DNA of 61,802 nt, filler included, from Catajapyx aquilonaris (Eukaryota): the NCBI GenBank assembly GCA_000934665.2. It is 2 parts of 2 records of this genome, joined end to end, with 100 filler letters (N's around TTAATTAATTAA, not from the genome) between each part and the next. Parts side by side here need not be neighbours in the genome. Positions count along the whole stretch, not along the records: positions 30,977 to 61,802 come from KZ539182.1; 1 more part is not named here. One strand, written 5' to 3'. The translations under genes and the position numbers were made by a program. The notes beneath the pieces were generated by a model, which had not been told where the DNA came from, ran no database searches, and saw only the letters and a list, made by a program, of their open reading frames with translations. Shown piece after piece: positions 32,236-60,609 of this stretch (position 1 is the stretch's first letter; the number at the start of each line of letters is the position of its first letter).

Positions 32236-32529
32236 GCCAATTAACGGAATATAACAGACTAAGACTTGCCGGACCTTTGCAGTTTCCGATTCACTCATTC
32301 TAAGAGGCATCCAAAGGTCCCGGACCAAGTCTGGGCTACATCCGAATATGTACATCGGGTTCAAGAGGATAACCAAACAGATCTCCAATGTCAAGTCTCA
32401 GACCATGCTGCCAGTGGTCGGGGGGGGGGGGGGNNNNNNNNNNNNNNNNNNNNNNNNNNNNNNNNNNNNNNNNNNNNNNNNNNNNNNNNNNATTCATTCA
32501 ACCTTGATTCACCTTAACAAAAAGTGGTG

Positions 32530-37862: not shown

Positions 37863-38806
37863 GGTAGTTCTTGCGCTAAGACGAAATGGTGGCAGAGAAT
37901 TTATAATTACACCAGTTGTTCCCTGTTATGTGACTAATGAGCCTGTAAAATATAAAGGACTTCTACTAAATACTTTCGGAGATATTCATCTCTGAACTTG
38001 AGGTCTTATACATGGCGGCTTATGGAGAGGGGCATCCAGGAACCGATATTTCCCCCCGCAGATCCCGTGAAAATGGTGCCACGATCACAAAAAACTAATC
38101 ACTGTGTAGCCACAATCGTACCAAATTATTTTGTCACAAGAAACCAATACGTCACCAGGCCCGTTCTTCCACAATCCCTTCAAAACTGCGGGGTAGTCGC
38201 GGCTCCCAGCGATGACTTGGCAACGCAGCTACAACAATATAGTAGGGGGCGCGCGTTTTGAAAGTCCCAGGCATCGCGCTGAGCTCGTTTTAAGAGTATA
38301 AAATTAATATATAGGGCTCGTTTTACGATATTGGGATGTGCAAGAGTTAAAAGGGGCAATAATAATAATATTAATAATATATTTTAATAACAATAACAAT
38401 GACAATAATTTCATTAAAATATCGATATACTGTAATATCGATAGTTGGGCTAACTATCGAGTACTCGATATATCGCTGGGGGGAAATATCGATACATCGA
38501 TAAGTTGTTGACAAGTGCTGCCAACGTGTGCAACGTTGTCGGATTTCCCGCACTTTTTCCGGTATTTGGAAGAGCCATATTTCTGCTCTTCTCCGGGACA
38601 AAAGTGCACGAGGGAATTATTATCCCCCAAATAAATGTTCATGTAACGTATCCGACGCGAAACACGCACTCAAAACTCTGTTTCAGAGAAATACTAGCAG
38701 AAATGTCTTACAATCGCAGAAGTTGGTACTAGCCAGCTCGCCCCATGTATAAACATAGGCTCAACCCCCCTCCCCCATCCCCCCGTTTCCAAGCGCAAGA
38801 ACTACC
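37863..38806. mobile_element. TTAA-targeting non-autonomous DNA transposon (Kolobok-like termini)
   Basis: TTAA|GGTAGTTCTTGCGCT ... AGCGCAAGAACTACC|TTAA. Confidence 0.75.
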
Positions 38807-38810
38807 TTAA

Positions 38811-38942
38811 GGTAGTTCTTGCGCTTGGAAACGGAGGGAAGGGGGTGGGGTGTTGAGCCTATGTTTAGCCAGCTCGCCCCATGTATAAACATAGGCTCAA
38901 CCCCCCTCCCCCATCCCCCCGTTTCCAAGCGCAAGAACTACC
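38811..38942. mobile_element. 132 bp mini-element of the same family, abutting at a shared TTAA
   Basis: Same termini; TTAA at 38807-38810 and 38943-38946. Confidence 0.7.
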
Positions 38943-39822
38943 TTAATGTCAATCGATTAGTAGCAAATTTGAGAAATGCATCACAGCAGTTTTGGATAGA
39001 CGGTTATAATATAAGTTTTGAACATGAAGATTCAGAGGAGTACTGCAATCTGTGCAATGAGAAGGAGAAAAGAAGAGTATCCACCACATAGTCTACAGCA
39101 GAAGTGCTCATTCTTAAAGATTCCGAGGGGGAAATATATTAGAGAGATGGTCTTCAAATATTCATGAATCATGATGGTCCCTACATTGTTATGGCGACCG
39201 TTGTCTGCAGGTTGCAGTAGACCTCATGATGATGATGGTTAAACGCACTTACTCGCACTTACTTATTTGTATACTTATAATAATGAAAAGGTAAAGTGCA
39301 TAACTTACATCTTAAAAGTATCTCGGATGTTGGCTTTTTTCCCAATAACTGCTGTCTTGAATTGTGAAGAAGCTGTATGTAGACGATGTACCGGTATTCG
39401 GAGAGTTTGGTATTTCTGAGTTTAGAGTATACACGATGATTTTGTTTTACTGGTACCTCGTACCTTTTACGAGTAGGCTATATGACATTATTTTGTACGC
39501 GTTTTCCCCCTGAAATCGTTTTTAAATATTATGTAGCAAAACTAAACATTTTGATGGACTTAATTTTTTTATTTTATGCAGTGCATTCTTGTACTCATAC
39601 AACACGTCGGAGAGCAACTAAACGTACGGCCACTTGGAAGTGCAAATCAAATGTAACACTTTGAAAATTTATTTCTGCGAATTTATAATGATGTCAAGAT
39701 GGAATTTTTTAGGTATAGTTGAAAGAAAATCTACAGTTATGAATAAGATTTTTTTTACACTTATACATTAAAGTCGTACTTCCAAAATATTTAAAACTAG
39801 CTATCACGTATGTGACAGAGTA

Positions 39823-40207
39823 CAGTACCCTGCATTAATGGCCATGCACAGACATCGCCACCTGTCCAAGAACGAGCGGAAATAGGCGCCTGTGGGGTGC
39901 GTCCAAAATACTTGGACAGCTCAAGATATATATAGCGGTAGATTCAAACTCTTGCTACAAAGATGGATCACGGATATATCTGTGGGATGAATTATAAGGC
40001 CATTGCGATTCCTATCAATGTATTGAGGTTGTGAGCCAGTTATTACACGGACCGAGCGAATGCCTGTTAATCCACCGCGATATCTTGAGCCGTCTAGAGT
40101 GGACTTGTAAGCAGTCTTGATTTTTGGACACAGCCCACCAGACGCCTAGTTCCGCTCAATCTGGCCAGATGGCGATGTCTGTGCATGGCCATTAATGCAG
40201 GGTACTG
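39823..40207. mobile_element. Tc1/mariner-type MITE
   Basis: TA|CAGTACCCTGCATTAATGGCCATGCACAGACATCGCCA and its exact reverse complement|TA. Confidence 0.85.
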
Positions 40208-41451
40208 TACGAATTACATGTGTATTTTACGTATATTGTAGAATTTATTTGTGTAAATGGTTACTCCATACACATAATAAGTGTACACGTGTACTACAGA
40301 TGAACCCTGATATAACAGACTCGTCTGTAACGTATACTTTCGGTTATAAGAGACTCTAAAAACCGGTCCCGGCATATTTCCATATAATTATGGCTTTTGT
40401 ACTCGGCTTATATAACAGATCTCGGTTTATATAACAGATTGATTTCCCCTATCCCTTGAAGTCTGTTAAATATATCCTGGTTCAACTGTACTACCTTTAG
40501 TTTTTAGTAGGTGTAATTTGAGCAAAACTCTGTTACAAAATACAAGTTAAATAGAGTTCAGGATTAATGCAATTATTTAAAGTTAATTACAAAACCGTAC
40601 TTTTAAAGAGCATAAGATATTCTACAGGCCGGTAATATCTAAATAGTCCTACTTGTGTGCATCAACGGATTCACTAAAATATAACCAGTCTGCCTCAAAT
40701 TATAAGGCAATGCAAAAGTATGAGACAACAAGACTGCACGTGATAACTGCTACACAACCATTGCTCTATTGAACCTTCTGAGAAAAACATTTAATTCAGT
40801 TATAGCCAAAAATCATATTAATCCTTAATATTTTTTTGCCATATTTGGATGCTCACATTAAAATTGACAGGATGAAACAATTAGATGCTTGAATAATGAA
40901 AATATTTTGCACTAGGCATAGAAAAACTGCTCAAAAATCTGTGCCTACGCGATTGTCTCAGGTGGTCTCGTGATATTGGGCATATGACCGGATTCAGAGA
41001 GTTGTAAAATCATAGCTCCTTGTTTTAAGTACTTGTCATTACCCTGGTCGATGTGTGTATGATCATTTTTCATGTGTTCGTTCAAGTTGTGGACTGCAAA
41101 CATTTATTGTCTCATCACATGATAGTTTTCGACGTTGTTAATTGCTTTGTAACATAGATTAAGTTTATGGAAAATTCCTGTGTATGGTCTGCTCTGTTCA
41201 CACTTATTTCAGAGACCCATCCAAATGCTCCAGAACCCCCGTAATGGTTTCGGTTGGTTTAAAAATGTCTATGATATCTTGATGATATGTTGTATTTTAG
41301 CAGTCAGAAAAGAGTGGATCACAAATCATTTAACTCCTGACATCCAGATTATAATAATAATAATTGATTGATTGGGTATATTCGGCTAGCCCCTAGAGGG
41401 GCCTTCTGCCAGACCTTTATTAAGATGGTATACAATTTTGGAATTCTATTT

Positions 41452-41699
41452 TTGAAGCGCCCGGGCCCACGGGCAGGATGACAGGAGGGGATGTGCAAAG
41501 TGCAGTGAATCTGACGCTGTGGCCATTTTTAGTGAACTCCCCCGGGTGGTTTAGTCTGTAGAAAATACCACCCGAGACGAAGCCAGAGGTGACCCTGAAC
41601 TCTGCACGAGATGAAGGGGGTGTCCCCGCGCTGGGATCGAACCCGGGACCTTAACATCCGTGGGCGCGCACGTTACCGCGGCGCCACTCCGTCTCCCTT
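41452..41699 (-). mobile_element. Second copy of the SINE at 36319
   Basis: Near-identical reverse complement of about 36321-36562. A more distant relative with an (AAT)n tail lies at about 44770-45125. Confidence 0.85.
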
Positions 41700-42714
41700 G
41701 TGACATCCAGATTACGTCTACTGATGCCTAAGCTAAACGAGACTATGAGGGTTTGAATAGAAATCGAATGTATAAAAAATTGTCACCCCCTTTTTGGATG
41801 TCACTTCCGGGAGTCACACCCAGAAAAGTGGATGTTCATACTATGATGTTCAACTACACCCAGACAAGATACAGGTCTACAGATGTTTCGTAGTTGGCAT
41901 TGCTCCATATTGGAATTTTCCCATGTTACCCTATTCCAGGCTCCAAATTAATGCTAATGGTTGAGGGGGGGGGGGGTTATTTTATTTTATGAGATTTCTG
42001 ATATACAGAATGCAATTTTGACGGATAATGAGGCATAAACATTTTTAAAGCCATGTACTAATACGATTGGATTTCACTAAAAACTGTAAAGTGNGCAATT
42101 TTGACGGATAATGAGGCATAAACATTTTTAAAGCCATGTACTAATACGATTGGATTTCACTAAAAACTGTAAAGTGCTATAAACTTACTTCTACTTACAA
42201 TAAAATTATGATGCATGTTTTACATAGTTCCGACGTTCAATTAACCCCACGATTATTCCGTGATATTGCATGCTGCTGGAATAGCCCCGTAATTTCGACA
42301 TCTGTTGAGGAAATGTTTAAATATTGTTATCGGCTATTTTCTTTTTAACATACATCAGCCATACAAAAAGGAATGCTTACCTGCCAAAGTTATTAGAAAC
42401 TTGCTTATGAATATCGGCACATAATCCCTACAGCCCTACAGGACATAAAATAACACCAAAGGTCATCCCATGCAATAAGCAAGGAGGAAAATACGTGAGC
42501 TTGTGTACAAGGTTGCTAAGTATTGACAAGTTCAATTACAAGTCTGTACATCGATATCGACATTTTCACTGTGGCAACGTATGAAATGCGTGAATTCAAA
42601 AGCACTTCTGTCTTATTTCATATATGATGCATGTTTCCGCACTCATAACGAGTTGGCGTGTCGGACTGTCGGAAAGCAGTCTGGACATTAGAGCAGTGCC
42701 AAGTCGACATAGCA

Positions 42715-44664
42715 ATGGGTATGCGTACAATTATGAAGATTCATATTAGTACTTGGCTAGTATTTCTCGCATTCAGAGTGACATCTGCCAGCGTTTCTAT
42801 GACAGACCAGACGGTGAACGGACATGTCGAGTCTCAGTTCGTGTGGAGAGCATTCAACAATGAGAGAGTTGTGGAGCTGGAATGTCCTTTGGTGGTGAGT
42901 CACGACGTGGGAAAATCTCTTCCTGCAAGTGTCCAGACGCTTCTGGCCAACATGTCCAGAGTGGGGAGACCAGTGGTCATCTCCAGATCAGAATCAAAAA
43001 GCACCTGGACCTGCGATGACTCAGTAGATGAAGGAGAAGTATATGGGGGGATGGATGTGGAATCTGCATCGAAGCAAGCCAAGTGCTCAGTACACCTGGT
43101 CATAACGTGTGCAGACAACTACGAGGATGTCATGGAGGCGCATTTGGATCCAGATGTGGCCCTGATAGGGGCAAAAACCACTCGCGACCCCTTCGTCTTT
43201 TGGATCAGGGATTGGGATGGCAACGAATTCCTGGCTGAAAAACCTGCATCCAACATCAAGTTGAAGGTGTCCCTCACTGCTGGAGATGACAATAGTATTC
43301 AGGTCAATTCAGTATGCCTTTTCTGCGATGGACCTACCTTCGACCATGTCATGTTCAATGTGACCACAAATGTTACATTGGACAAATATCTGTTTCGAAA
43401 CACAGCAAACGATCTGGGTGGTGTGAAACTTGAAGGATTGTATCTCCGTGAAATGGACGACACTATGTGCGATCCATATTTTCATTTCGCTGACATTTGT
43501 TTTATTGCCGAAGCCCTGAACTTCAAGTGGCATGTCAGCATCATCGACGTAGCTCAACTTATTAAAAATATGAGCCACGCTGCTCTGGTGTTGGAAGATT
43601 ACAGGCAAGGGAAACTCTCATTTTCGCCAATAAGTCCGTTGGTAGAGATTGTATACTCCTTATTTCACGTCGCACCCAAACACCTTCCGTTTCGTGTGTC
43701 TTTTCTCGCCAGGACCCCACGAGATTTGCAAACTCCGCTAATAATAGTGTATCCCTATGACACGTTATGTTGGTGTGCGTTTGCCATCGGCTTTTTTCTG
43801 TCTGGCTTGTTCCTTTGTACCTTCGCAAAGTTGCAGTTTAAAGTGATAGGATCACAGTCTCCTTTTCGCTCAGCATTGTATACCTCGAAATATCTTGCAC
43901 GCCATATCATTGCACAAATCTCCAACGACCTTTCTCGCGAGTTGTCGTCTTCAAGGGCATTTGTATCGATGTGGATATTTTTTGTACTAATTATAATGAC
44001 CGGATACGTGAGCAAGCTATATAGCTTCATAGCTTTCCCTCCGACGGAGGAGGTCCCAGCCAATATCCAGGAACTGGAGGATTCCAAGTTTGATATATAC
44101 ATAGAGGAATATATTTATGAAAACCTTATGCAGGATGTGACCTGGCGACAGCATTACAAACCACTGATCAAAAAATTAATTCAAGTACACGCGATATCTG
44201 GTTGTGTTCCTAACTTTATGCTCTATGACAGAGTCTGCCTGGGAGTTGACTTTATGTTGCAGAACATATCTCACGACATCGACGTGTACGGCAGGGGCAA
44301 CACGTTCATATCCACCGACAGTTTCGCCTCACTGAACTACGCTGCTCTTCTTGCCAAAGGCAAAGTCTACCAGGACGACTTCGATTACTGGATGGAAATA
44401 TATCACAGCTCGGGTCTTGAGACGATGAAAACCCCATTTATAAATCACCTGCATATGCTGCAGAAGTTTAGGAAGAGGCGAGAGGATGGCGTAGCTCTAG
44501 TGGAGGAAGGCACTGTGGCCATCACTTTGGAAAGCGTCGGGGGGCCTTTCTGGATTCTAGTCTTTGGTAGCGCAGCTTCTCTCGCTGCTTTTGTCAAAGA
44601 AACTCTAGTTCAAAATTTACTGTCTCGCTACACCAACAGCCTGCATTATCCGTATTTAAATTGA
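42715..44664 (+). CDS. Divergent ionotropic receptor (IR, iGluR-related chemoreceptor), intronless
   Basis: Signal-peptide-like N-terminus. TM-like segments IVYPYDTLCWCAF, SRAFVSMWIFFVLIIMTGYVSKLYSFIAFP..EVPANIQEL and ITLESVGGPFWILVFG..SLAAFVKE match the IR architecture. Confidence 0.8.
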   Translation: MGMRTIMKIHISTWLVFLAFRVTSASVSMTDQTVNGHVESQFVWRAFNNERVVELECPLVVSHDVGKSLPASVQTLLANMSRVGRPVVISRSESKSTWTCDDSVDEGEVYGGMDVESASKQAKCSVHLVITCADNYEDVMEAHLDPDVALIGAKTTRDPFVFWIRDWDGNEFLAEKPASNIKLKVSLTAGDDNSIQVNSVCLFCDGPTFDHVMFNVTTNVTLDKYLFRNTANDLGGVKLEGLYLREMDDTMCDPYFHFADICFIAEALNFKWHVSIIDVAQLIKNMSHAALVLEDYRQGKLSFSPISPLVEIVYSLFHVAPKHLPFRVSFLARTPRDLQTPLIIVYPYDTLCWCAFAIGFFLSGLFLCTFAKLQFKVIGSQSPFRSALYTSKYLARHIIAQISNDLSRELSSSRAFVSMWIFFVLIIMTGYVSKLYSFIAFPPTEEVPANIQELEDSKFDIYIEEYIYENLMQDVTWRQHYKPLIKKLIQVHAISGCVPNFMLYDRVCLGVDFMLQNISHDIDVYGRGNTFISTDSFASLNYAALLAKGKVYQDDFDYWMEIYHSSGLETMKTPFINHLHMLQKFRKRREDGVALVEEGTVAITLESVGGPFWILVFGSAASLAAFVKETLVQNLLSRYTNSLHYPYLN

Positions 44665-45033
44665 GCTATTCAATAGGAATATGTAATATAGTCTGACAAA
44701 AGAATGTTTCAAACTCACCCTCGCCCTACTGAATTATCCAAACTATTAATACATATAAATAAATTAGGGAGTCCCGGGATCGAACCCAACCCGGGGTTTT
44801 CCACTTCATCTCGTGCAGAGTTGGGCCATGTCTGTCTTTGTCTCGGGTGGAAATTTCCGCTTGACTAATCCACCCGGGGGAGTTCACAAAATGACCAAGA
44901 AACGACATTGCACTTGTACTTTGCACATCCCCTCCTACCTACCCTTGGAACAATTGAATAATATAAATATGATATGGTTCCAAAAAATTGTGGTATTCCA
45001 CCCACTTTGCCTACGGCCATTGCACGGTGCACC

Positions 45034-48100: not shown

Positions 48101-48301
48101 TTGTGTGAATTAGGGGTCCCAATCACTTCCGGACCACTGTGCCCCACCTATCGGGGTACAGTGGACCATTTGCAGGGGGTCGCTTCTAAATTTTTTAAAG
48201 CCAAAAGGATGGCACTGCCTGTGAATATAGTAGTGACTTATATTACCAAGGAGTATCTCCACCATGCAAGGTCACATCCTGCATAACGATTTCATAAAGG
48301 C

Positions 48302-48852
48302 TTTATGAAAACGTTATGCAGGATGTGACCTTGCGACAGCATTACAAACCACTGATAAAAAAATTAATTCAAGTACACGCTTCATCTGGTTGTGCTCCTA
48401 ACTTTATGCTCTATGACAGAGTCTGCCTGGGAGCTGACTATATCTTGCAGAACATATCTCACGACATCGACGTGTACGGCCGGGACAACACATTCATATC
48501 CACCGACAGTTTCGCCTCACTGCACTACGCTGCTCTTCTTGCCAAAGGCAAAGTCTACCAGGACAACTTCGATTACTGGATGGGAATATATCACAGCTCG
48601 GGTCTTGAGACGAAGAAAACCCCATTTATAAATCACCTGCATATGATGCAGAAGTTTAGGAAGAGGCGAGAGGATGGCGTAGCTCTAGTGGAGGAAGGCA
48701 CTGTGGCCATCACTTTGGAAATCGTCGGGGGTGCTTTCTGGACTCTAGTCTTTGGTAGCGCAGCTTCTCTCGCTGCTTTTGTCAAAGAAACTTTAGTTCA
48801 AAATTTACTGTCTCGCTACACCAACAGCCTGCCTTATCCGTATTTAAATTGA
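48302..48852 (+). pseudogene. 3' fragment of a third ionotropic receptor copy
   Basis: Near-identical to 44115-44664; homology extends into the 3' flank to about 48937. The 5' part is replaced by transposon-like DNA with GGGGCACAGTGGACC repeats (about 47515-48170). Confidence 0.85.
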
Positions 48853-49215
48853 GCTATTCAATCGGAATATGTAACACAGTCTGACAAAAGAATGTTTCAA
48901 ACGAACCCTGACCCTATTGATTTATCAAAACTCTTAACCAGCCCCTGGACACTTCTATCCAAGCGCAATAGAAAAGGCCGATCCGTTATTCCTTCCCGCA
49001 GCGGCGCTAGTAAAAACAATAGAATCTCGCTGTGCGTGTCGTTCATTCGCCATAACAACTAGCGCAACTAGCGACCCTCCTTCCGATTACTAGGTTTATC
49101 CTTAGGGTTTATCAGCGACCCCCCTCCCGATTACTACCGATAGCTGACCGATAGCGTATACCAAGATGGCCGCAATATGGAGATGTTCACATCATGGCCA
49201 CCTCCAGTCAGCGCC

Positions 49216-50183
49216 AGTAGTATGAAAAATCGGAGTCCCATGCCAGGAGGGTGGTAAGATCTTTGAGGGGTATGCAACCCGCAATACATGTCAGGTCCTT
49301 GAAGGGTATGCACCCCGCAATACATGTGCAGATCCCCCAGGGGTATGCAACCATGCGATGGGTTGCGGGTTGCCTACCCCTCAAAGATCTGACCACCCTC
49401 CTGGCATGGGACTCCGTTTTTGGTCACCCTGATATAGTAGACCGGAGTCCTATGCCAGCAGGGTTACCACCATTGTTGTGAAGCAGTGTTGCCAATAGAT
49501 GCTAATAACGGCTATTAAAAATAGCATATAGCGGATAGCAGTCTTAATAGCTATTTTCTTAATAGCTATTTTGAGTGCATCCGAATGGCTAATAGCTATT
49601 TCGGGTGCGTTCGGATGGCTGTGCAAGGGGGTATGATTAAAAGCTATTTTGAGTGTATCCGAATGGCTAATAGCTATTTCGGGTGCATTCGGGTGGCTGT
49701 GCAAGGTTACTCCAGATTAATATTATTGTATAGTTAGAGTCTACAGCTTTATTTTGAACATTGTTGCCAGATGTAAATATTCTGATTTTACGTTCGAGTC
49801 CACAGCTTTATTTTGAGCATTGTTGCCAGATGTAAATATTCTGATTTTTAGTTATAATAGCTATTTTGAACATGTTTTACATAAGATGAATTCGGGCAGA
49901 TAAGGTAAGTACGTGTTGGGTTGCCAGATTTAATGTTAGGTTAATAACATCGTAATTAAACAATATATTGGCCTCCTCCAGTGCCAGGGGCTCATCACGG
50001 ATCGAGAGGTAGTAATCCCACACATGTACAGCGCACAGAGGAATATTGCTGAGTATGCTTGCATGCCATGGCAAGCAAGAGAGCTGGACTCTGACCGGGA
50101 AGGATGGCCGCCAGTTGTTTATGCTTTTTTTAATGCATTGGTGGCAGAGGGCGAAATAATAGAATAATGTTATAAGGCTTGTG
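49216..50183 (+). repeat. Left terminal inverted repeat of the Maverick
   Basis: Matches 61319-61802 in reverse complement; contains repeated AATAGCTATT palindromes and a subterminal hairpin. Confidence 0.8.
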
Positions 50184-50825
50184 ACCAGCGCCTTATTATA
50201 AAGGTTGCGGAAGGCTGTAAGCACATAATATTATGAATTACTAGAGTGGAAATGATGGTGTCATATAATCCATTAGGTATTGGTATTTTATGAATGTTGC
50301 GGAAGGCTAAATTTTTTTAAATGCATTGGTGGCAGACGGCGAAATAATAGAATAATGTTATAAGGCTTGTGACCAGCGCCTTATTATAAAGGTTGCGGAA
50401 GGCTGTAAGCACATCATATTATGAATTACTAGAGTGGAAATGATGGTTTCATATATTCCATTAGGTATGGGTATTTTATGAATGTTGCGGAAGGCTATAA
50501 AAATAATACTGTAGTTGAGGTTTAAAAATTCATTTATTACATCACGGCATAATCAGCTTTGCTCGATGAGACTGTGTACGTCACTGAAGCAGGCAAAAAA
50601 AAAGTCTAGTCGCGTCTAGATAATATCCGGTTTCTTTTTTCTTTCTCTTGCTTATTCAGTGTAAGCTAATGTGTGCCAACTTACAAGGTAAAGATAATAA
50701 TGGGAAGTCATTTATTATTCGGTTTTTTTAAATAATATAGATGGCTATAGAAGCATGTAAAATAATAGTTTTTTAAAAATAATATAAATTCATGAACATA
50801 ACACCTTCTCAATTACCATCTCATC

Positions 50826-50878
<53 letters not shown>

Positions 50879-51289
50879 GCTAAGGCTTGCTTTTATGCCA
50901 ACGCCTTATTATGAAGGTTGCGGAAGGCTGTAAAATAATACTGTAAATAATATTAATAATAACAATATCAAGAACAATAATAAAAAATTATTTTTATTCG
51001 TTCATAAGAAAGGAATAATGCGGCCTTTGTTCGAATAGCTACAACATCATCAAAGAGAAGGAGCCAGCTTGAGCATTTTGCGCGCAAGCAGGCTGCAGCA
51101 AAGTCCAACCACGTCTAGCCAATATCCTGTTTATTTTAAACCTCATTTTTCCAGGAAACAAAATAGGTTCTTTATTTTGAATGATGCGGAAGACTATAAA
51201 GATGAACGACGGGTAATAATAATGACAATATAAAGGAAACTCTTATCAAATTATAATGTTATTCCAATCTAACATTGATAGAAGACAGA

Positions 51290-52723
51290 ATGAGTAACAA
51301 TTCCTCATCCTCATCACATCGAAAGTGGATTACTTTTGACTCATTAAAGAACGAAACTACTCGCTTGCACACCTTTAAGCGATGGCCTGTATCGTTTCTG
51401 ACGCCTGAAGAGTTGGCCAGTGCAGGGTTTTTCTTCCTACAGAAGAAAGATTATGTCGAATGTGCTTTTTGTCGCGGCGTTGTTGGAGAGTGGCAAGAAG
51501 GGGATAAAGCAATCACAGAGCATAAAAAACACTTTGGATGGTGTCCATTTGTGAATGAACTACCTGTGGGAAACACCATGAGAGGTGAGGAGGAAGAGGA
51601 GGAGGAGGAGGAGGAACTAGAACTAAATGTATCACATCTTGGAAGGGGGTATGACACCTGCCAACGTGTTGTTACTGAAAGAAGACCAAATTCTGCACCT
51701 GAGCGAGGTGAGTAATGAGTCATGCTCATGTCGAAGAATATTCATTAAGTTACTTTCTCTTCACAGCAAAAAGCATGAATGGGAACATAAAATTGAGGGA
51801 AGGAGCCCACATTAAGTCCCTTGGACTGATTCGCATAGGGCATCAAGGTCCTCGCTTTCCAGAATTCATCGCTCTAGAAGTCAGATTGTCATCGTTCAAG
51901 GAATGGCCTTCAGAGATGAAACAAACCCCAGAGGAAACGGCATCTGCTGGATTTTATTATACAGGGCTATCAGATCATGTTAAGTGTTTCTCATGTTCCG
52001 GAGGTTTACGTAATTTTGACGAAGATGATGACCCATGGAAGGAACATGCGTACTGGTTCTTCCGTTGCGCATACGTGACACACGTCAAGGGAATATAGTA
52101 TATAAAATCAGTCCGACTGTCCGAGGCGAAGCAGGAATACAGAATATTGTGAAAAAACCCATAACGCTAGAAAGGTGTATGCAATCAGCTATGGTGAGGA
52201 GGGTTATGGAGATGGGATTTGAGGGTCGGTTGACTCGGCAAGTTATTCAAAAGCGCTTAGAAGAACGAGGAAGAATGTTTGGAAGCTTGGACAGTTTAGC
52301 TGAAGCATTGATGGATGAAGAGGACCGGTTAGAGAGAGAGTCAATGGGATCTCATGAGGTTAATGGCATTACGTAGGTGTCTACTTATTCATCACCACTC
52401 TTTATCGGATTTTTTTCCTGTAACTATATGATTTTTTTTACAGGCTTCAGAATGCTATGTCCACCTGTCCTCCTCCTCCTACAAAATTGGATCCACTAGA
52501 GCCACCCTCTTACAATGAGCATGTCGAGAGTATATGTCCCATCGAAAGCAATGACTTCATTGCAAAAAACATCCTCAACGCTTGCAACGTGTGCTTCAAT
52601 GAGGAGATGAATATAGCAATAATGCCATGTGGTCATATTTGTGGGGAGCGATGCTCATCATTGTTATCTACATGCCACATATGTCGCGCTCGCATTGAAG
52701 CAACCTTCAACATCTACATGTAG
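51290..52723 (+). pseudogene. iap: Inhibitor of apoptosis (BIR-BIR-UBA-RING), 3 exons, with premature stop and frameshift
   Basis: BIR1 RLHTFKRWP...CAFC...EHKKHFGWCPFV, BIR2 RLSSFKEWP...CFSC...EHAYWFFRCAYV, UBA-like VMEMGF, RING CNVC...PCGH...CHICR. Introns 51708-51766 and 52373-52443 keep phase. TAG at 52096-52098 and a frame change precede the UBA. Confidence 0.88.
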
Positions 52724-52857
52724 TCTGAGTCCCTATAACGAAACATCATGCGACTCAACCATCGTCAATGTCGGTCCGTCAATAGTGAACGTCGACTCGA
52801 CGAACATCATGTCGTTCATTGAGATTGACCAATTGACTATGATGTTATTTCACTCAT

Positions 52858-53255
52858 TAAAAGTCGTTTAAAATAACATCATGGTCGTAAGGTCGACGTA
52901 ACGTTCGACATTGACGTGGGGACGAACGACATGTCGCTCGATGGCTCGTGTAGACCGATCGTCATGTCGATGATTTAACGTTAAATTATCGTTAAAAGTC
53001 GTTAAAAATAACGTCCTGGTTGTATGATTTCGTTAAAATAAGGTCCTGGTCGTAAGGTCGACGTAACGTTCGACATTGACGTAGGGACGAACGACATGTC
53101 GCTCGATGGTTCGTGAAGGCCGTTCGTCATGACGACGATGTAACGTTAAATTATCGTTAAAGTCGTTTAAAATAACATCATGGTCGTATGGTCGACGCAA
53201 CGTTTGTCATTGACGTGGGGATGAACGGCATGTCGCTCGATGGCTCGTGAAGGTT
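52858..53255. repeat. CpG-rich tandem array, three copies (165 and 134 bp spacing)
   Basis: GGTCGTAAGGTCGACGTAACGTTCGACATTGACGT-like units at 52883, 53048 and 53182. Confidence 0.9.
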
Positions 53256-53407
53256 GATGGTCTACAAATTTTATACCTGAAATTTATGTACCTTAGGGAA
53301 ATAAAACTTTAAGTGAAACATTTTATTTCATTTCTAGTCATTTTATTTTTTACATGTCCCGAAGCATTGATGGTTCAACTAATATTCATTATACTGATAC
53401 GTTGAGA

Positions 53408-54061
53408 TTAGAGCGTCTCCTTATCAAAGCATTTCCTATATTTTCCATGGCGGGTACGGGTTTTATCAATGGTGAGAAACCCAAATGGTTTATGCCAACT
53501 TTTCAAGCACATTCTTTTAAATTCATCAAAACTGTCTAAGTCATTCGTACAATGATCCCGAAATATCATATTTAAATTACGATCACACTGAGGGAAAGCA
53601 ATAATCAAATTAGCATTATCTCTGATTAAGGCTGCAGGTATTTTGTTATATGTTTGAGCTAAATATACACAGTTTATATTTTTGTGACGTCCATGTGTGA
53701 ATATATCTTGAATTATGCGTTGCTTGTGAAGCATTACATCATCAAAAATAACAAGATGCGACATGCATGGGTCCAGCTCTCCTAACACACTTTCGTCTTG
53801 AGTAAAAATCAATCGGCTCTCTTCTCCGACTCTTGCAAAGGCCTCTCGCAGTTTTCGGTACATGGACTGATCAGCTGTAGAAGTAAAAATGATTAAACTA
53901 TCATAATCGATGTAACCAGGAATCAGGATTAAGTTGACGATCAAATTGGTTTTCCCACAGTTGCTAGGACCAACAATAATGCCTCGAATACTTTGAGGCA
54001 ATATTTTATGGTGCTTTTGCGTTTTCTGTTTGACAACGCCCATCATATTAAAGACTTCCAT
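53408..54061 (-). CDS. A32/FtsK-like DNA packaging ATPase
   Basis: Walker A GPSNCGKT, Walker B LVIFDD, and GRHKNINCVYLAQ...IP...IRDN. Confidence 0.92.
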   Translation of the reverse strand: MEVFNMMGVVKQKTQKHHKILPQSIRGIIVGPSNCGKTNLIVNLILIPGYIDYDSLIIFTSTADQSMYRKLREAFARVGEESRLIFTQDESVLGELDPCMSHLVIFDDVMLHKQRIIQDIFTHGRHKNINCVYLAQTYNKIPAALIRDNANLIIAFPQCDRNLNMIFRDHCTNDLDSFDEFKRMCLKSWHKPFGFLTIDKTRTRHGKYRKCFDKETL

Positions 54062-54098
54062 TCGAAAAAAATGCTGTTATGTGAACCGATGCTGACCT

Positions 54099-54916
54099 TT
54101 ATATATCTTCGTTCATATTTTCATCCCAGGAAAACCCCTGCGGATGCCAATTAGGATCATCATCATCAGGTGCCATCCACTTTCCTTTGGGAGTTTCTGC
54201 TGTTGGATCGAAGACAATCTCCCCTTCCTCCTCTTCTTCCAGGATAGGTGTTACTGACTCTCCTACAGGATCTGTTACCGTATCCATATGTTTATTTCCC
54301 GGAACGAACCATTCGAAAGAGTCCGGAGTGCCAACCTCATCGTCTGTTTCATAACATTCCTCAGCATCGGAAGTCACTTTCTTTGCATTAATCCAGTTGC
54401 TAATCATCATGACTTTTTTCATGCTACACTCATGATGGAGATAGCATTGCATCAAGGCATCAGAATAGTATTCCTTTAGAGAAATATAGTTAGGACATCC
54501 TAGAGTTTCCAGATTAACAACTTCACGCTGCAAGTAACTGGAAAACATATGACATTGTTCTGCACCTGAAATGAACGATAAAAAATGACATATATACGGT
54601 ATTTCATATTTTCATATATCTCACCTTTGGCGTAAATAGTTTTATAGTTCATTGTAGCGGCCGTTAGACACTTGCAAGTGTATTTATGGGGTATGCATCC
54701 AGCGGAGAAAGGAATACCGGTCAAATAATTCCTTATGTATAAATTTTCATCCATAATATTACTAGGCCAATGCTCCTTAGGCGAGTGAAACAGGAAGTGA
54801 TTCAATTCTGGAGTCTCAGCTCCATTCGCAACTGCTAGTGTTGTCACTTCCTTCGGAAATAGATGTCCCTCAGCATCCTTGTAGCAATTGGAAGCGATTA
54901 TTACACCTGGCTCCAT
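54099..54916 (-). CDS. Polinton DEDD-exonuclease-like protein, 2 exons
   Basis: A GT-AG intron at 54624-54566 joins TIYAKG-AEQCHMFSSYLQREVVNLETLGCP in frame. Motifs FPKE, HFLF and NLETLGCP; the expected first acidic motif appears absent. Confidence 0.65.
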
Positions 54917-54977
54917 TCTGTCGAGTGAGAAATAAATCGGAAAATTCGCGACTTTATATAAATGCAATTTACACACC

Positions 54978-56240
54978 ATGATCGTGTTAAATATGCGCGC
55001 GCATGCATCCGGGTCGGGTAATCTGCTTAACAAACTTATCGATAAGTTACCGCTGGAATTGCACATTCCAGGTTACCGTTTCTGCGGACCTGGAACACGA
55101 TTAGAAAAGAGATTGCAAAGTGGAGATGTTGGGATTAATGATTTGGACGAAGCCTGTCGGGAACATGACATTGCTTATGCCAGAGGCGATGATAAGGGGG
55201 AGGCGGATAAAATATTAGCAGAAAAGGCCTGGCGCTTGGTTAAGAGAAGCGATGTATACCTGAAACAGAAGGTGGCTGCAGTGGCCGTAGCTGCTGCAAT
55301 GAGGCTAAAGCGACTTATCGAGGGCCGTGGGGTCATGGCTAGGATAGCAGAAGAAGTCCATCGTTCGGCCAGGCATAATTTTTCTAGGCGTCATGTGATA
55401 ACCAAGGGCCCGAATGATTTGTGGCAGGCTGACCTGGTCGAGATGATACCTTACTCACGATCTAATAAGGGATATAAATATATTCTAATGATAATAGACA
55501 CCTTTACGAAATACGCATGGGCAGTGGCATTGAAGAAAAAGACCGGTGCGGAAGTAACTGCTGGTATCAAGAGGGTTGTGGGGAAAATGTATAAACCTGC
55601 ACACTTACAGACCGACAAGGGAAAGGAATTTTTTAATCGAGAATTTTCCAAGCTGATGCGAGAGCTGAACATTAATCATTATGCCACCAATTCTGACCTG
55701 AAGGCGTCGATTGTTGAGAGATTGAACCGAACAATAAAGAATCGCATGTATAGACGGTTCACCGCTCTCGGTCATTACCGTTGGGTTGATTTATTGCCAA
55801 GTATAATGAAAAACTATAATCAAAGTTATCATCGTACTATAGGCACAACACCTGATAAAGCATATGAATGCGTAGAGAGTGTGGGGAAAAAAATAGCTTC
55901 CTCTCTTAGAGTCCAACTGAAGAAACCTAAATATAAAGTGGGGGATCTAGTACGTGTGTCAAAAATTAGGGGAAAATTTCACAAAGGCTATTTGCCGAAT
56001 TGGAGTCATGAATTATTTCGGATTGAAACGGTGAGACGTAAATCAACGGATCCTGTTACATACACATTGCGTGGGGTGGACGGCTCATTTTATGAGCAGG
56101 AACTCCTGAGAACAAGCATTCCAGACGTGTATTTAGTTGAAAAAGTGCTCAGAAGAAAGGGGGATAAACTTTTTGTTAAATGGAAAGGATTTAGTTCCAC
56201 GTACAACAGCTGGATATCAAAGAGTGACGTAGAGGTATAA
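54978..56240 (+). CDS. Parvovirus-type phospholipase A2 fused to rve integrase and chromodomain
   Basis: PGYRFCGPG...LDEACREHDIAY (PLA2); WQADL, QTDKGKEF, IVERLNRT (DDE triad); YLVEKVLRRKGDKLFVKWKGF...NSWI (chromodomain). One uninterrupted ORF. Confidence 0.92.
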   Translation: MIVLNMRAHASGSGNLLNKLIDKLPLELHIPGYRFCGPGTRLEKRLQSGDVGINDLDEACREHDIAYARGDDKGEADKILAEKAWRLVKRSDVYLKQKVAAVAVAAAMRLKRLIEGRGVMARIAEEVHRSARHNFSRRHVITKGPNDLWQADLVEMIPYSRSNKGYKYILMIIDTFTKYAWAVALKKKTGAEVTAGIKRVVGKMYKPAHLQTDKGKEFFNREFSKLMRELNINHYATNSDLKASIVERLNRTIKNRMYRRFTALGHYRWVDLLPSIMKNYNQSYHRTIGTTPDKAYECVESVGKKIASSLRVQLKKPKYKVGDLVRVSKIRGKFHKGYLPNWSHELFRIETVRRKSTDPVTYTLRGVDGSFYEQELLRTSIPDVYLVEKVLRRKGDKLFVKWKGFSSTYNSWISKSDVEV

Positions 56241-56293
56241 ATAGGGGGTACATATTCCTGACCTTGGTCACATATTCCTGACATTGGTCACAC

Positions 56294-57349
56294 ATGGATC
56301 AGATTCGCAAGTACGCTAAAGCAGATCAGCTGGAAGAATTAGTGCGACTAAAATTTCGGGAGAAGGGTGAGCGCAAAGCTAAAGGCGATGAACAATTAGG
56401 TGATTTTTTTAACCCGTTGACCAAAAAATTAGACGAGCAGCAGCAGCAGCTACTGAAAAGAGAGGAGGTGTCGTACATTGACTTGGAGCCACAGTACGAA
56501 TCTCCCATGATGTACGAATCTCCCATGATAAAAGAAGAGCGAGTCTCTATTAAACAAGCTTCCCCAAGTAGCAAGCGTAGGAGACTTTCATGGCAACCTA
56601 CTCCTACTCATAACACTTCTTTAGAGCAATATATTACTATCCCCCCTACTCTGAATATTGATCATATTCTCACTTCTATGGATCCTATTCCCACCACTAG
56701 CACACACCCTTCTCCCACTGCGAGTAGTAGGTGTCCTTCTCCCTCCTCAAGCACTTCTAGTTTCAGTGTGCATTCTAAGCCTAAGCACATGTTGAGTGAA
56801 GCATTTAGGAGTCAGAATGACCCGGACATAGTATTTGGTGTGAGAGACGTAGAGGATGGGTACAAAATTGGCAGTGAACTTATAACGCTTCTACCAGATG
56901 GAAATTCTATTCAAATCAAGAAAAAGAGGTATGAATTAACACCAGGATTGGTTGAGCTTCTGATTGACCGTAATCCTCATATTTATACTAAGGAGGACTT
57001 TACTAATTATAGCGTCATTTTACACGATACCAATGCCATGAGGCAGGGAAATGATGCTGAAAATTCTAAACCAAAATCTAGCGTCAGCACGAAATGGAGC
57101 CAGTTAGTTAAACCCATATGGCAGGATATGAAATCGGTAACAGGAGAAGGTGTGAAAACTCTTCGAGAAGTTGATTTCTTGCCTTATAAAAGTCCGGATG
57201 ATCTACTTTATCGTTTGCGGGATATTTTAGCTTCACGCAATGCGGGCAACACCTCTCATTTCAACGAGGCCATCTCAATAGCGGAGGAACTACAAAAAAA
57301 TAATTACATAACCTCACATCAGTTCATCATTTTACGTAAAATTATTTGA
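56294..57349 (+). CDS. Conserved Polinton protein of unknown function
   Basis: 351 aa ORF between integrase and capsid genes, with YELTPGLVELL and a C-terminal LLYRLRDILASRNAGNTSH.NE pattern I associate with arthropod Polinton ORFs. Confidence 0.65.
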   Translation: MDQIRKYAKADQLEELVRLKFREKGERKAKGDEQLGDFFNPLTKKLDEQQQQLLKREEVSYIDLEPQYESPMMYESPMIKEERVSIKQASPSSKRRRLSWQPTPTHNTSLEQYITIPPTLNIDHILTSMDPIPTTSTHPSPTASSRCPSPSSSTSSFSVHSKPKHMLSEAFRSQNDPDIVFGVRDVEDGYKIGSELITLLPDGNSIQIKKKRYELTPGLVELLIDRNPHIYTKEDFTNYSVILHDTNAMRQGNDAENSKPKSSVSTKWSQLVKPIWQDMKSVTGEGVKTLREVDFLPYKSPDDLLYRLRDILASRNAGNTSHFNEAISIAEELQKNNYITSHQFIILRKII

Positions 57350-57422
57350 TTTATTGTGGAAGCATATAATTATATGGTATATATTATATATGCACATAAA
57401 GAATGATACTATTATCATTACA

Positions 57423-58130
57423 ATGTTTTTGGAGATTAGTGGCAGGTGTCCGTTAATTAAGGCTTCGTTCTCTCCACCCATACCTTTACATGGAAAATAT
57501 GAATTAGCGTTACTTGGGTTCAATACTCTTTATTCTTCCCCAAATATCGATAACTCGAATTGTGAGTTACAATATTCCAAAGACAATAGAAACCCTGAAA
57601 CAATTAAGTTCCCCTACGGTCACTGGGAAGCGAAGGAAATTGCGGATTACATTAACAAAAAATTACCCGAAATATATATTTCCATAAATGATAACACTGG
57701 ACGGACAGAAATAACATCAAGTAATTCTCGTAAACTTGTTCTATTTTTTTCCGAGCCTAATTCGATTGGAAAAGTGTTGGGTTTCCGTGACAACGTATCC
57801 ATAAACCAGGAATCGCCTCTGGTAGTAAGCAAATATCTCATTAATATCACCAAGGTCTCTTCGTTTCAATTTCACTGTAATATTGTGAGTCAGGGGTATG
57901 TCAATGGGAAGGAAACAAACTTGTTATATTCATATTATCCCGATGTTGCACCCCACTATTCAATAGTCAAGGAAATTGTCAACCCCATTTACCTACCGTT
58001 ATCAGCCTCATTTATTGACGAGATTTACATAAATTTAACTGATCAGGAGGGTCAAAATCTATATAATAGTAGGGATGTGATCACATTTCGCATTCACATT
58101 CAACCTGTGAAACGAGATGTTGTCACGTAA
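57423..58130 (+). CDS. Minor capsid (penton-like) protein
   Basis: FSPPIPLHGKYELALLGF...CNIV..GYVNG...IYLPL...I.INLTDQEG, directly upstream of the major capsid gene. Likely start is MFLEISG at 57423. Confidence 0.8.
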   Translation: MFLEISGRCPLIKASFSPPIPLHGKYELALLGFNTLYSSPNIDNSNCELQYSKDNRNPETIKFPYGHWEAKEIADYINKKLPEIYISINDNTGRTEITSSNSRKLVLFFSEPNSIGKVLGFRDNVSINQESPLVVSKYLINITKVSSFQFHCNIVSQGYVNGKETNLLYSYYPDVAPHYSIVKEIVNPIYLPLSASFIDEIYINLTDQEGQNLYNSRDVITFRIHIQPVKRDVVT

Positions 58131-59406
58131 AGCTCAAAATGTCCTGCATGGATTAATTTCATCACCACTTGGCGATGGGGAGGGAGACGGAGACGTATTT
58201 AAAAGAAGAGAATTAATCGAGTATCAACCAGACACTTCCGATTCAAATTTTCCTAATACTGACATTGTACACCGTTTACCACGACTTGATAGCTACGTAG
58301 ACCTATCAAATTCGTATTATTACTTTAGGGGATCCATTGTGAAAAATGTTGAAGGTGTAGACGTTAGGTTAGACCCAGCTGACAAGATTCATCCTGTAAA
58401 CAACTTTATTTTGTATCATTTCGATAGATTTTCTTGTACTGTGAATGGGTCAGAGGTGGCCTACTTACAGAATTTGGGTCGTGCTTCGACTCTCAAATAC
58501 ATATCATGCTTGCATGAGAAAAATTTGGATATGGAGGGATGGAACCTTTCTGTGAATAGGACCTCCGACTCCCGCATAAGCCCAGACGGTCAATTCTCTT
58601 ACATTATTCCTCTAAAACGTTTTTCTGGATTTTTCGAGGATTTAAACCAGATATTTTACGGACCTTCCATGAAATGCGTTTTGAGTCGAAACGATTTGGT
58701 GCGAGATACGTTACATGTGTATGAAGGTGATGCTGAAGATACTCATAATGCTTACAGGATAAATTTCGAGCAGATTTCATTATTCATTCCTCACCTAGAG
58801 CCGACTCTGGCCACTCACACTAAGTACCTGTCTCTCCTACAACAGGAGGTTCCTTTGGAATTAAAATATAGGGATTTCAGGTGTGGAACTCTTCCATTGA
58901 CTAAGGGAGAAAGCGTGTTTTCGTTCAACGTACCTATTAGCGGTTTGATGGTAAATGTACCGCGGTATGTGGTCATTGGATTCCAAACTGGAAGAGAAAA
59001 TGAATTGAAAAAAGAAACCTCTGAATTTGATCATATATTTCTCCGAGATATAAGTTTATTGTTGAATAATCAACGCTTTCCAGGTAAAGATTTGAATCTG
59101 AACTGGGAACGAATGGAATGTCAGAAATTATACTTTATGTTAATGAAGTTTAAAGACTCTTACTATGGAAGGGAGCTCGAAACGCAGGTGAGCCTCGACG
59201 AATTTAAGAAAAAATGTCCCATAGTAGCATTTGATTGTAGTCATCAGAATAGTGAGCTAACCACTTCTAGTTCCAATATGACACTGGACATACGGTTGAG
59301 CAAGCCCTTAGTAGCTGCTACTCGAATGTATTACCTTTTGATATATGGGAGAACATTTCACATGACTTTTGGGGCGTCCCAAATGATGGAGGTCACAATA
59401 CTATAA
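58117..59406 (+). CDS. Double-jelly-roll major capsid protein
   Basis: 429 aa, beta-rich, with IPLKRFSGFFED, PRYVVIGFQT.R, FDH..LRDI.L.LN.QRFP and PIVAFDCS.Q patterns typical of Polinton MCPs. Confidence 0.85.
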   Translation: MLSRKAQNVLHGLISSPLGDGEGDGDVFKRRELIEYQPDTSDSNFPNTDIVHRLPRLDSYVDLSNSYYYFRGSIVKNVEGVDVRLDPADKIHPVNNFILYHFDRFSCTVNGSEVAYLQNLGRASTLKYISCLHEKNLDMEGWNLSVNRTSDSRISPDGQFSYIIPLKRFSGFFEDLNQIFYGPSMKCVLSRNDLVRDTLHVYEGDAEDTHNAYRINFEQISLFIPHLEPTLATHTKYLSLLQQEVPLELKYRDFRCGTLPLTKGESVFSFNVPISGLMVNVPRYVVIGFQTGRENELKKETSEFDHIFLRDISLLLNNQRFPGKDLNLNWERMECQKLYFMLMKFKDSYYGRELETQVSLDEFKKKCPIVAFDCSHQNSELTTSSSNMTLDIRLSKPLVAATRMYYLLIYGRTFHMTFGASQMMEVTIL

Positions 59407-59439
59407 ATTTCATACGCAATTTACTCATCACTGTCAATT

Positions 59440-59721
59440 ATGCCTAAGAGAAAGAATGCGAAGGTTGTGCGAAAGTCTACATCTCTAAAAAAAAAAGGCG
59501 GATTCCTTCCTCTTCTGATACCCGCCATAGGAGCCCTCGTTTCCGCAATCACAGGAGTGACCAGCGTGGCGTTAAATGCGAAGGCCAATCAGAGAAGATT
59601 GCAGGCTATAGAAAAACAGACCGAAATACTGTCTCAGTTGCGGAAGGGTCAGGGTCTACGCCTAAAACCTTATCCCAAGAAAGGCTCTGGTACGAAGAAA
59701 AAAAAGAGATTAGTCCGCTAA
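59440..59721 (+). CDS. Small basic virion core/membrane-active precursor (adenovirus pX/pVII-like)
   Basis: K/R-rich, with KKGG|FLPLLIPAIGALVSAITG hydrophobic segment and further GxG sites. Confidence 0.7.
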   Translation: MPKRKNAKVVRKSTSLKKKGGFLPLLIPAIGALVSAITGVTSVALNAKANQRRLQAIEKQTEILSQLRKGQGLRLKPYPKKGSGTKKKKRLVR

Positions 59722-60134
59722 CAAATGAAGACATTATATATTTGGCTAGATGGTTACAAGTTAAAGGATTTAAGGGTGTATTTATGCGGGACGAACTCAA
59801 GGGTCGCGTTTCCCAGCAAGAATGTGCCATTGTTAATCTAGATAATAGCAGAGGTGATGGAACACATTGGGTGACCTATTGGAAAAATGGGGAAGATATA
59901 TTTTATTTTGATAGTATAGGTGATATAAAGCCTCCCAACGAGGTGATCAAACATCTTGGACCCAATATAATATATAATACCAGTCGATTGCAAAATCCAG
60001 AAGACGGCGAACCGTCTTGCGGACACCTTTGTCTGATTATCCTCTCGGATTTGAGCCAAGGTCACATCTACGAGGATATTTTACATAGATATGAATCGGT
60101 TTGGAAAGTGTTGCTCCCATCGAGAAGTGAATAG
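59700..60134 (+). CDS. Adenain-like cysteine protease
   Basis: GTHWV, YFDSIG, RLQ and CGHLC catalytic motifs. The frame is open upstream through SPLTNEDI with no ATG before 59784. Confidence 0.88.
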   Translation, partial: KKEISPLTNEDIIYLARWLQVKGFKGVFMRDELKGRVSQQECAIVNLDNSRGDGTHWVTYWKNGEDIFYFDSIGDIKPPNEVIKHLGPNIIYNTSRLQNPEDGEPSCGHLCLIILSDLSQGHIYEDILHRYESVWKVLLPSRSE

Positions 60135-60609
60135 GATGGGGTTGATGAGCCAGTTTGGAGTGGGTATGAATTTTGTGGAGTTTCGGGGGAAGCGATTGAA
60201 TAATGTTGCAGCCCCGGAAGGAGATACGGATTGTGTGACCCTGGGACATCTCAAATCAGTGGCACTACTTAATGAAGAAGATACATATTACAATGCTGGA
60301 GGGAAACGCATAGGTCAAGTGCAAGCCCCAGAAAATGATGCCGACGTGGTCACGCTATCGCACATGCATAGGCTATGTCTAACTATGAATAAACATCACT
60401 ATGCAGCTAATAAACGAAAAATTATTCAATTAGGACCACCAAAGGAGTCCGAAGATGCTGTAAATAAGGATTACGTCGATTCATTAATTCGTACTATGCT
60501 CGAATTAATGATGAATATTGTTAATGAAGAAAAGGATGTAAAAAATCAGATATATAAATTGTTGCACGACCCCCCTATCCATGATGATAATATTCTTATG
60601 AACGAATAA
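60091..60609 (+). CDS. Fibre-like repeat protein
   Basis: Three repeats KRLNNVAAP..DTDCVT, KRIGQVQAP..DADVVT and RKIIQLGPP...EDAVNKDYV; AATAAA overlaps the stop. Confidence 0.6.
   Translation: MNRFGKCCSHREVNRMGLMSQFGVGMNFVEFRGKRLNNVAAPEGDTDCVTLGHLKSVALLNEEDTYYNAGGKRIGQVQAPENDADVVTLSHMHRLCLTMNKHHYAANKRKIIQLGPPKESEDAVNKDYVDSLIRTMLELMMNIVNEEKDVKNQIYKLLHDPPIHDDNILMNE

Follow-up and report, generated by a model that had tools for sequence, protein, structure and literature searches.

The window analyzed here (the whole stretch of 61,802 nucleotides, filler included, from the genome of Catajapyx aquilonaris, GenBank assembly GCA_000934665.2, in which positions 30,977 to 61,802 come from record KZ539182.1) contains, in its last quarter, an element that is best called a Maverick/adintovirus-like provirus, about 12.9 kb long and without a DNA polymerase of its own. 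Close to the probable left end of this element lies a palindrome of 196 bases. The first-pass annotation of this DNA had taken the palindrome for a fold-back end and suggested that it serves self-primed, parvovirus-like or host-polymerase replication, or that it is a resolution/packaging signal. On the evidence in the window, a structural by-product is the better supported reading and a dedicated priming hairpin the weaker one. We give an even chance to the explanation that the palindrome is an inverted duplication in a modular terminal repeat array, that it is the repeated boxes, and not the hairpin, that count, and that the element is helper-dependent.

The full inverted repeat, delimited with a repeat finder, consists of an outer (left) arm at 49226-49289 (+ strand) and an inner (right) arm at 49358-49421 (- strand). 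These 64-nt arms match at 59 positions (5 mismatches, 92%) and are separated by a 68-nt spacer (49290-49357, + strand). The hairpin originally placed at 49225-49421 was thus confirmed in every detail: the quoted 54-mer (49231-49284), for which near-perfect pairing had been claimed, finds its complement in 49363-49416 at all but 2 of the 54 positions, and the further repeats noticed in the loop are present as two more GGGTATGCA(A/C)CC units in the spacer. Folding of the segment 49216-49460 as single-stranded DNA, and comparison with 200 dinucleotide-preserving shuffles, gave -84.7 kcal/mol for the native sequence versus -33.5 +/- 3.9 for the shuffles (z -13.1), none of which was as stable. The spacer alone has no significant fold (-10.8 kcal/mol, z -1.2, 21/200 shuffles as stable).

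Unit alignment revealed the composition of the palindrome. Its spacer is made of two direct units of about 36 nt, U2 (from 49290) and U3 (from 49326), whose cores are AGGGTATGCACCC at 49303 and GGGGTATGCAACC at 49340. Another unit, U1, constitutes the inner part of the left arm, and a fourth, inverted unit (U1') the inner part of the right arm, while the outer part of each arm consists of an A-run followed by an X box (CGGAGTCCCATGCCAGGAGGGT), so that the inner arm reads as U1' plus an inverted X box. A third X box (49444-49464, + strand, 2 mismatches in 21) is able to pair with the inverted one into an alternative small hairpin, and the fold of the region comprising both (49390-49470) reached -21 kcal/mol (z -5.2, 0/200 shuffles as stable). 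The 13-mer core of the U units, with up to 2 mismatches allowed, was found 9 times in the window versus 1.09 expected: the palindrome accounts for 4 of the matches, a second copy of its module (61019 and 61047) for 2 and the interior of the element for 3 weak ones, and the host DNA of the window (49 kb) has none.

Unit U1 looks like a chimera. The 19 nt on its outer side differ from U1' at 1 position and from U2 at 4, whereas its inner 17 nt differ from U2 at 1 position and from U1' at 3. Three of the five mismatches between the palindrome arms fall within the 17 loop-proximal nt, although this clustering is not significant (Fisher p 0.11). The U units were also compared by eye with the adenovirus packaging 'A-repeat', and they do not fit its consensus TTTG-N8-CG.

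The palindrome lies within terminal inverted repeats (TIRs) that are themselves modular. The left TIR (49216-51131, + strand) and the right TIR (60593-61802, - strand) pair over left 49567-51131 versus right 61802-60593, and the best block (49792-50184 versus 61714-61319) shows 95.5% identity over 396 columns, a value that the 92% identity of the palindrome arms does not exceed. The window stops inside the right TIR, position 61802 of which pairs with left 49567 or 49645, and the counterpart of left 49216-49566 would fall beyond 61802. The left TIR comprises (i) 'A' modules (78-nt unit, two copies, 49546-49706, + strand) with the 10-bp palindrome AATAGCTATT, (ii) 'B' modules (59-nt unit, two copies, 49733-49850, + strand), one of which is also present in the outer part of the right arm, (iii) a 185-nt unit at a 188-nt period (50125-50497) and (iv) an arm-specific segment (50498-50905). 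The perfect 10-bp palindrome has 9 copies in the window (0.09 expected), all in the TIR arms (49546-49865 and 61162-61778), and is a candidate protein-binding box.

Comparison of the two arms revealed differences in the number of B units (2 versus 1), in the number of 185-nt units and in module order. In the right arm, a 433-bp block (60886-61318) with permuted modules (B, partial palindrome module, A, B-tail) replaces the unrelated 408-bp left-arm segment 50498-50905, which has a (GA)n run. These differences in copy number and order indicate that short modules form a mosaic prone to recombination over the terminal 2 kb. An open reading frame (ORF) of 116-117 aa is present within both TIR arms; it has no Pfam family and no convincing start.

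The partial palindrome module of the right arm (60971-61112, - strand) is 92% identical to 49287-49428. It has partners for U2, U3, U1' and the inverted X box (X'), in that order, and none for the outer arm (X-U1), and it gave no significant fold in comparison with shuffles (z -0.18). Its orientation is TIR-mirrored, as expected without flip/flop, and the A and B modules that flank it are ordered differently than in the left arm. On the inner side of the palindrome, the homology between the two module copies carries on for a further 24 nt, and on the other side it breaks off within the palindrome. As a consequence of this overrun, the palindrome is not a discrete unit with boundaries of its own.

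The position of the palindrome relative to the left end depends on where that end is placed. The commonest conserved end motif of vertebrate Mavericks is (AGT)2 at the 5' end and (ACT)2 at the 3' end, and it is thought to serve jumping-back in protein-primed replication (PMC8097293). Here, AGTAGT is found at 49216-49221 (+ strand). This hexamer occurs 9 times on the plus strand of the 61.8 kb, with 0.042 expected in the 288-nt interval 48938-49225, and we therefore place the left terminus at 49216, an assignment which, on this sequence evidence, is right with roughly two-thirds confidence. The palindrome, described earlier as lying at the left end of the element, would accordingly begin 10 nt inside the terminus; were 49226 the end, it would be exactly terminal. 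On the left flank, comparison with the flank of a paralogous receptor gene fixes host-like sequence only up to 48937, and the interval 48938-49225 shares 8 10-mers with the element versus about 7 expected, i.e. chance level. A terminus at 49216 predicts a total length of about 12.9 kb and, given the 6-bp target-site duplication (TSD) of Mavericks (PMC8097293), a TSD AGCGCC at 49210-49215, the right-end partner of which would lie beyond 61802. A duplicated terminus at 49438 (AGTAG before the third X box) was considered and rejected, as the match upstream of it was not above shuffles (692/2000).

The earlier description of the element as polymerase-less was borne out at the sensitivity of Pfam. 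All 119 stop-to-stop ORFs of at least 40 aa in 48900-61802 were scanned (92 at E<=1, 20 at E<=0.1 and 7 at E<=0.01), and none matched a DNA_pol_B-type family, including the protein-primed DNA polymerase (pPolB). The same scans returned no HUH/Rep/NS1 nickase, helicase, primase-helicase or resolvase family.

X boxes, U units of about 36 nt (with the GGGGTATGCAACC core), A modules and B modules make up the mosaic of the terminal 2 kb. According to the explanation that we favour, the fold-back would have been born from the inverted duplication of a single X-U block within a direct array of U units, through a template switch or snap-back in the course of replication or repair. The recurrence of the palindrome units as direct repeats in its own spacer and inside the right arm speaks for this, as does the position of the AGTAGT motif outside the palindrome. 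Further support comes from the second module copy, with neither an outer arm nor a fold, from the homology that overruns the palindrome, from arms no better preserved than the TIR arms, from the differences in modules between the TIR arms, from the unstructured spacer and from the lack of a nickase or resolvase in the Pfam scans. The chimerism of U1 and the pattern of arm mismatches may, as a weak hint from the sequence, be the trace expected of a template switch or snap-back between diverged units. The repeated boxes would then be candidate sites to which the integrase could bind, along with whatever factor starts replication or packaging at the end. An element of this kind, with its (AGT)2 end motif, would be copied passively in the chromosome and, when mobile, would rely on the protein-priming polymerase that a related autonomous Maverick supplies in trans. 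Extrusion of a hairpin or cruciform is physically possible, but it would not act as a primer.

Several observations weigh against an origin by inverted duplication in a helper-dependent element. The window holds only one full and one partial copy of the palindrome, and the right terminus lies outside it. The loop-proximal accumulation of mismatches is, as given above, not significant. No helper element with matching ends was seen within the window, and three ORFs of the element (P0001, P0003 and P0004, described below) are without an assigned function. The ORFs for virion proteins and integrase are open despite a TIR divergence of about 4.5% and indels, and this may point to a working polymerase-less lineage and not to a defective copy. 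Furthermore, an association described in protists recurs here, in that a missing pPolB goes together with a large palindrome near the end, and this, by analogy, favours a role specific to the hairpin.

That the hairpin is functional in replication is, in our judgement, unlikely, although it is the alternative that deserves the most attention. In the excised element or in the virion's genome, the terminal fold-back would prime a host or helper polymerase (rolling-hairpin replication) or would shape a 3' overhang or origin for end-filling, and, as part of the same proposal, resolution of concatemer junctions would fall to the rve integrase or a family-less ORF. Both premises of the fold-back replication proposed in the first-pass annotation were upheld: a very stable fold (z -13) starts at most 10 nt from the inferred end, and pPolB is missing from the ORFs of an element whose virion and integrase genes are open. 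In addition, the three X boxes (+, -, +) permit alternative hairpins. The specifically parvovirus-like form of the proposal fared worse. If AGTAGT is the terminus, the folded end would carry a 10-nt unpaired 3' tail, and neither an HUH nickase nor a resolvase or primase was recognized in the 119 ORFs. The arms, matched at 92%, are no better preserved than the TIR arms, the spacer does not form internal arms, and the second module copy is non-palindromic.

Genomes of parvoviruses, including adeno-associated virus (AAV), end in terminal hairpin palindromes with T- or Y-shaped internal arms and rely on a Rep/NS1 nickase. The palindrome described here resembles such ends in its size class (100-200 nt) and its position at the end of a genome, it would likewise stay whole in an integrated copy, and the element encodes a parvovirus-type PLA2 domain. 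Unlike parvoviruses and AAV, it has no T/Y arms in the spacer (z -1.2) and no recognizable HUH/SF3 Rep nickase, it belongs to a virus type with a dsDNA-packaging ATPase, and its palindrome possibly has a 10-nt outer tail. As regards closed-hairpin telomeres of the poxvirus type, no resolvase family was detected by Pfam in the 119 ORFs.

A closer precedent comes from protists. Endogenous virophages as well as polinton-like viruses (PLVs) of Halocafeteria seosinensis carry 52-nt palindromes at the TIR extremities, adjoining the TSDs; these palindromes are found preferentially in elements with replication genes other than pPolB and, in the subtypes concerned, in all complete copies (bioRxiv 10.64898/2026.07.28.741278). 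Hairpin priming was proposed for them, with accidental annealing as the alternative (bioRxiv 10.64898/2026.07.28.741278). Like these elements, the one in C. aquilonaris has a palindrome at the outer extremity of the TIR, an rve integrase and no pPolB. It differs from them in the size of the palindrome (196 bp versus 52 nt), in its 68-nt repeat-filled spacer and in its location 10 nt from the inferred end versus directly beside the TSD. It is also of the animal Maverick type, has no recognizable replication gene in place of the other replication genes of the protist elements, and carries the full palindrome in one copy. In an incomplete search of the literature, this preprint was the only direct precedent for palindromic or hairpin ends in Polintons/Mavericks, and none was found for animal Mavericks; nothing specific on polymerase-less or non-autonomous animal Mavericks was found in that search either.

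Terminal palindromes do not have to replace protein priming. In linear replicons of Streptomyces, tightly packed terminal palindromes coexist with end synthesis primed by a terminal protein (PMC4513846), which lends some support to a functional fold-back. Those telomeres are bacterial and involve Tap/Tpg, and no such proteins were detected here. A bolder form of the proposal is that there is a lineage of animal Mavericks which has lost its protein-primed polymerase but retained the integrase and a complete virion module, and which replicates from terminal fold-backs of about 200 bp by means of a host or helper polymerase, with the integrase or an orphan ORF resolving the junctions. We hold this to be distinctly unlikely.

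It is very unlikely that the palindrome is an independent fold-back element, similar to a MITE, or miniature inverted-repeat transposable element, which landed at the Maverick end or beside it and has nothing to do with Maverick biology. Such structures are common enough around the element: a search for inverted pairs with arms of at least 40 nt, at most 600 nt apart, returned 13 in the window, one of which is an artefact of an N run, and the remainder correspond to 8 loci, 7 of them in the approximately 49 kb of host DNA outside the element. The module also sits elsewhere among the A and B modules in one arm than in the other, which would befit a mobile piece. However, the 49 kb outside the element contain no copy of the X box or the U core, and the palindrome is not flanked by a TSD (its flanks are GTATGA and GGTCAC). 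Moreover, the homology to the second copy disregards the limits of the palindrome, running past one and ending short of the other, and this copy has retained its TIR-mirrored orientation. A degenerate X-box pattern had 0 matches in bacterial and archaeal contigs.

Highly improbable, albeit compatible with the other explanations, is a role of the palindrome as a source of hairpin RNA, in which a read-through transcript would yield a double-stranded stem of about 64 bp that feeds small-RNA silencing. The length and stability of the stem would suit a Dicer substrate, and Rfam returned a weak shape match to the miRNA-precursor model MIR946 (32 bits, E 4e-4). All Rfam matches were nevertheless sub-threshold, and this one is far under the gathering score of 190 bits. 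An assembly artefact, i.e. a mis-join among repeated terminal modules in a draft assembly with six N runs in the window and TIR modules that are repeated and ordered differently on the two sides, is hardly credible, as there is no N within 49-61.8 kb, the arms differ at 5/64 positions, unlike in a palindrome from a chimeric read, and the 196-bp structure is near the length of a single read.

The ends of the element find a structural parallel in foldback-type transposons. Drosophila FB elements and Tetrahymena Tlr1 have foldback-type ends or subterminal repeat arrays. In common with these, the element in C. aquilonaris has long inverted termini composed of short tandem subrepeats that vary in copy number and are rearranged between the arms. 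Its ends, however, are those of a virus-like element that has capsid genes, and the local palindrome is found within one arm.

To our knowledge, the mode of replication of Mavericks and polinton-like elements has never been shown experimentally. Protein priming is inferred from the presence of pPolB and from reiterated end motifs, and elements that have capsid and integrase genes yet lack pPolB sharpen the question of how they replicate. Should terminal palindromes regularly accompany the loss of pPolB in animals and protists, this would point towards a second replication mode in this class of viruses and would provide a simple sequence marker for it. If a lineage of animal Mavericks replicating from its fold-backs did exist, it would be to animals what the hairpin-priming model proposes for the virophages and PLVs of protists. 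If the palindrome is a mere rearrangement, the locus would still be a useful example of a polymerase-less Maverick with a spliced IAP gene, probably dependent on a helper.

The remaining gene content of the element supports its classification. It shares with Mavericks/Polintons of the adintovirus type an rve integrase, a double jelly-roll (DJR) capsid protein, an A32 ATPase, a pX-like ORF, a probable adenain, long TIRs and the (AGT)2 end motif. Adintoviruses are known to have homologues of IAP and PLA2 (PMC8502044), and butterfly polintons to have TIRs of about 2 kb (bioRxiv 10.1101/2025.02.07.637071). Unlike that type, it has no pPolB, a 196-bp palindrome right after the end motif, a TIR of shuffled modules and an intron-bearing cargo gene. 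Integrase, capsid protein, ATPase and TIRs were all found, a protease is probable from a match of E 0.2 and from motifs seen by eye, and pPolB was missing; for this last reason the term 'polymerase-less Maverick-like element' is preferred over Polinton in the strict sense.

The leftmost gene of the element is an IAP-like cargo gene (51290-52723, + strand) with BIR, BIR, UBA and RING domains (Pfam, over 51257-52723), the UBA domain being of the BIRC2/3 type. It has at least two short canonical GT..AG introns (51708-51766, 59 nt, and 52373-52443, 71 nt), which join the frames; the frame changes once more, without explanation, between the BIR2 and UBA domains. Intact vertebrate Mavericks reportedly lack introns (PMC8097293), and given this difference the gene looks like a captured host gene. 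A tandem array (52868-53306, three copies of a 140-nt unit) separates it from the A32/FtsK-type packaging ATPase (53411-54076, - strand; Pox_A32, E 2.2e-8), whose sequence shows a Walker A-like motif, GPSNCGKT.

Two overlapping orphan ORFs without a Pfam match, P0003 and P0004 (54102-55072, - strand), are situated between ATPase and integrase. P0003 has 2 short relatives at E<=1e-3 among 1.84 billion representatives, none in the PDB sequences and nothing usable in the Atlas, and P0004 was scanned with Pfam only. These two ORFs are the only unexplored candidates for a role in replication, and neither is a polymerase by any test run. The integrase (54936-56240, + strand) combines an N-terminal PLA2-like domain, an rve core (PF00665, E 5.8e-16) and a chromodomain (Chromo, E 4e-4). 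Its PLA2-like domain is of the parvovirus type (Phospholip_A2_4, PF08398, E 1.7e-9), with the HD motif visible. Among 8000 scored candidates, 2559 relatives were found at E<=1e-5, the best of which are 53-54% identical over 68% of the query, a coverage that probably leaves out the PLA2 part.

Two ORFs without a significant Pfam family, P0001 and P0002, follow at 56282-58130 (+ strand). The C-terminal half of P0001 resembles unnamed eukaryotic Atlas clusters, and the ORF is a conserved eukaryotic hypothetical; it has no PDB match. P0002 has the position and size of a minor capsid protein, and its only match (Flagellin_IN, E 0.046) is below the cut-off. The double jelly-roll major capsid protein (58111-59406, + strand) matches DJR-like_dom with E 2.6e-42 over profile positions 4-314 of 316. 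Among 3768 word-sharing candidates, it had 0 matches at E<=1e-10, a threshold too strict to say much. A capsid-protein scan of bacterial and archaeal contigs matched 92 pattern stretches, of which none was confirmed.

The last ORFs before the right TIR (59407-60609, + strand; identified by Pfam and by motifs seen by eye) encode pX/mu-like core, adenain-like protease and fibre-like proteins. The pX/mu-like ORF (59407-59721; Adeno_PX, PF05829, E 2.2e-8) directly follows the capsid gene and overlaps the start of the protease-like ORF, which matches Peptidase_C5 with E 0.2 only and has adenain-like His/Cys motifs by eye. The fibre-like ORF has a match to Phage_T7_tail (3.7e-4), which is below the cut-off. 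The genes for ATPase, integrase and capsid protein and the neighbouring ORFs (53411-60609) are all open, and the TIR arms are about 4.5% different with several indels; either the arms already differed when the element was inserted or the reading frames of the genes have been maintained.

The DNA flanking the element carries animal-type genes, namely Lig_chan receptor paralogues, HSP20 and F-box/LRR proteins. A protein search with the F-box/LRR ORF returned just 8 distant matches, at 23-30% identity. Three paralogous Lig_chan gene regions were identified (35375-37577, 42649-44749 and 48298-48937), the third of which is a 3' fragment only, ending 279 nt before the inferred Maverick terminus. The fold-back or MITE-like loci of the host DNA, with arms of 40-204 nt, are located at 2028-2708, 12665-14971, 22105-22291, 23480-24139, 32529-33266, 38750-38949 and 39820-40210; the one at 12.7-15.0 kb is a nested set spanning 2.3 kb. 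A further large inverted pair in the host DNA is formed by 36315-36561 and 41454-41705, and a host tandem array at 8880-9867 consists of four copies of a 246-nt unit. Finally, an RVT_1 reverse-transcriptase fragment (16414-17232, + strand, E 2.4e-9) lies beside an assembly gap and is an unrelated retroelement remnant.

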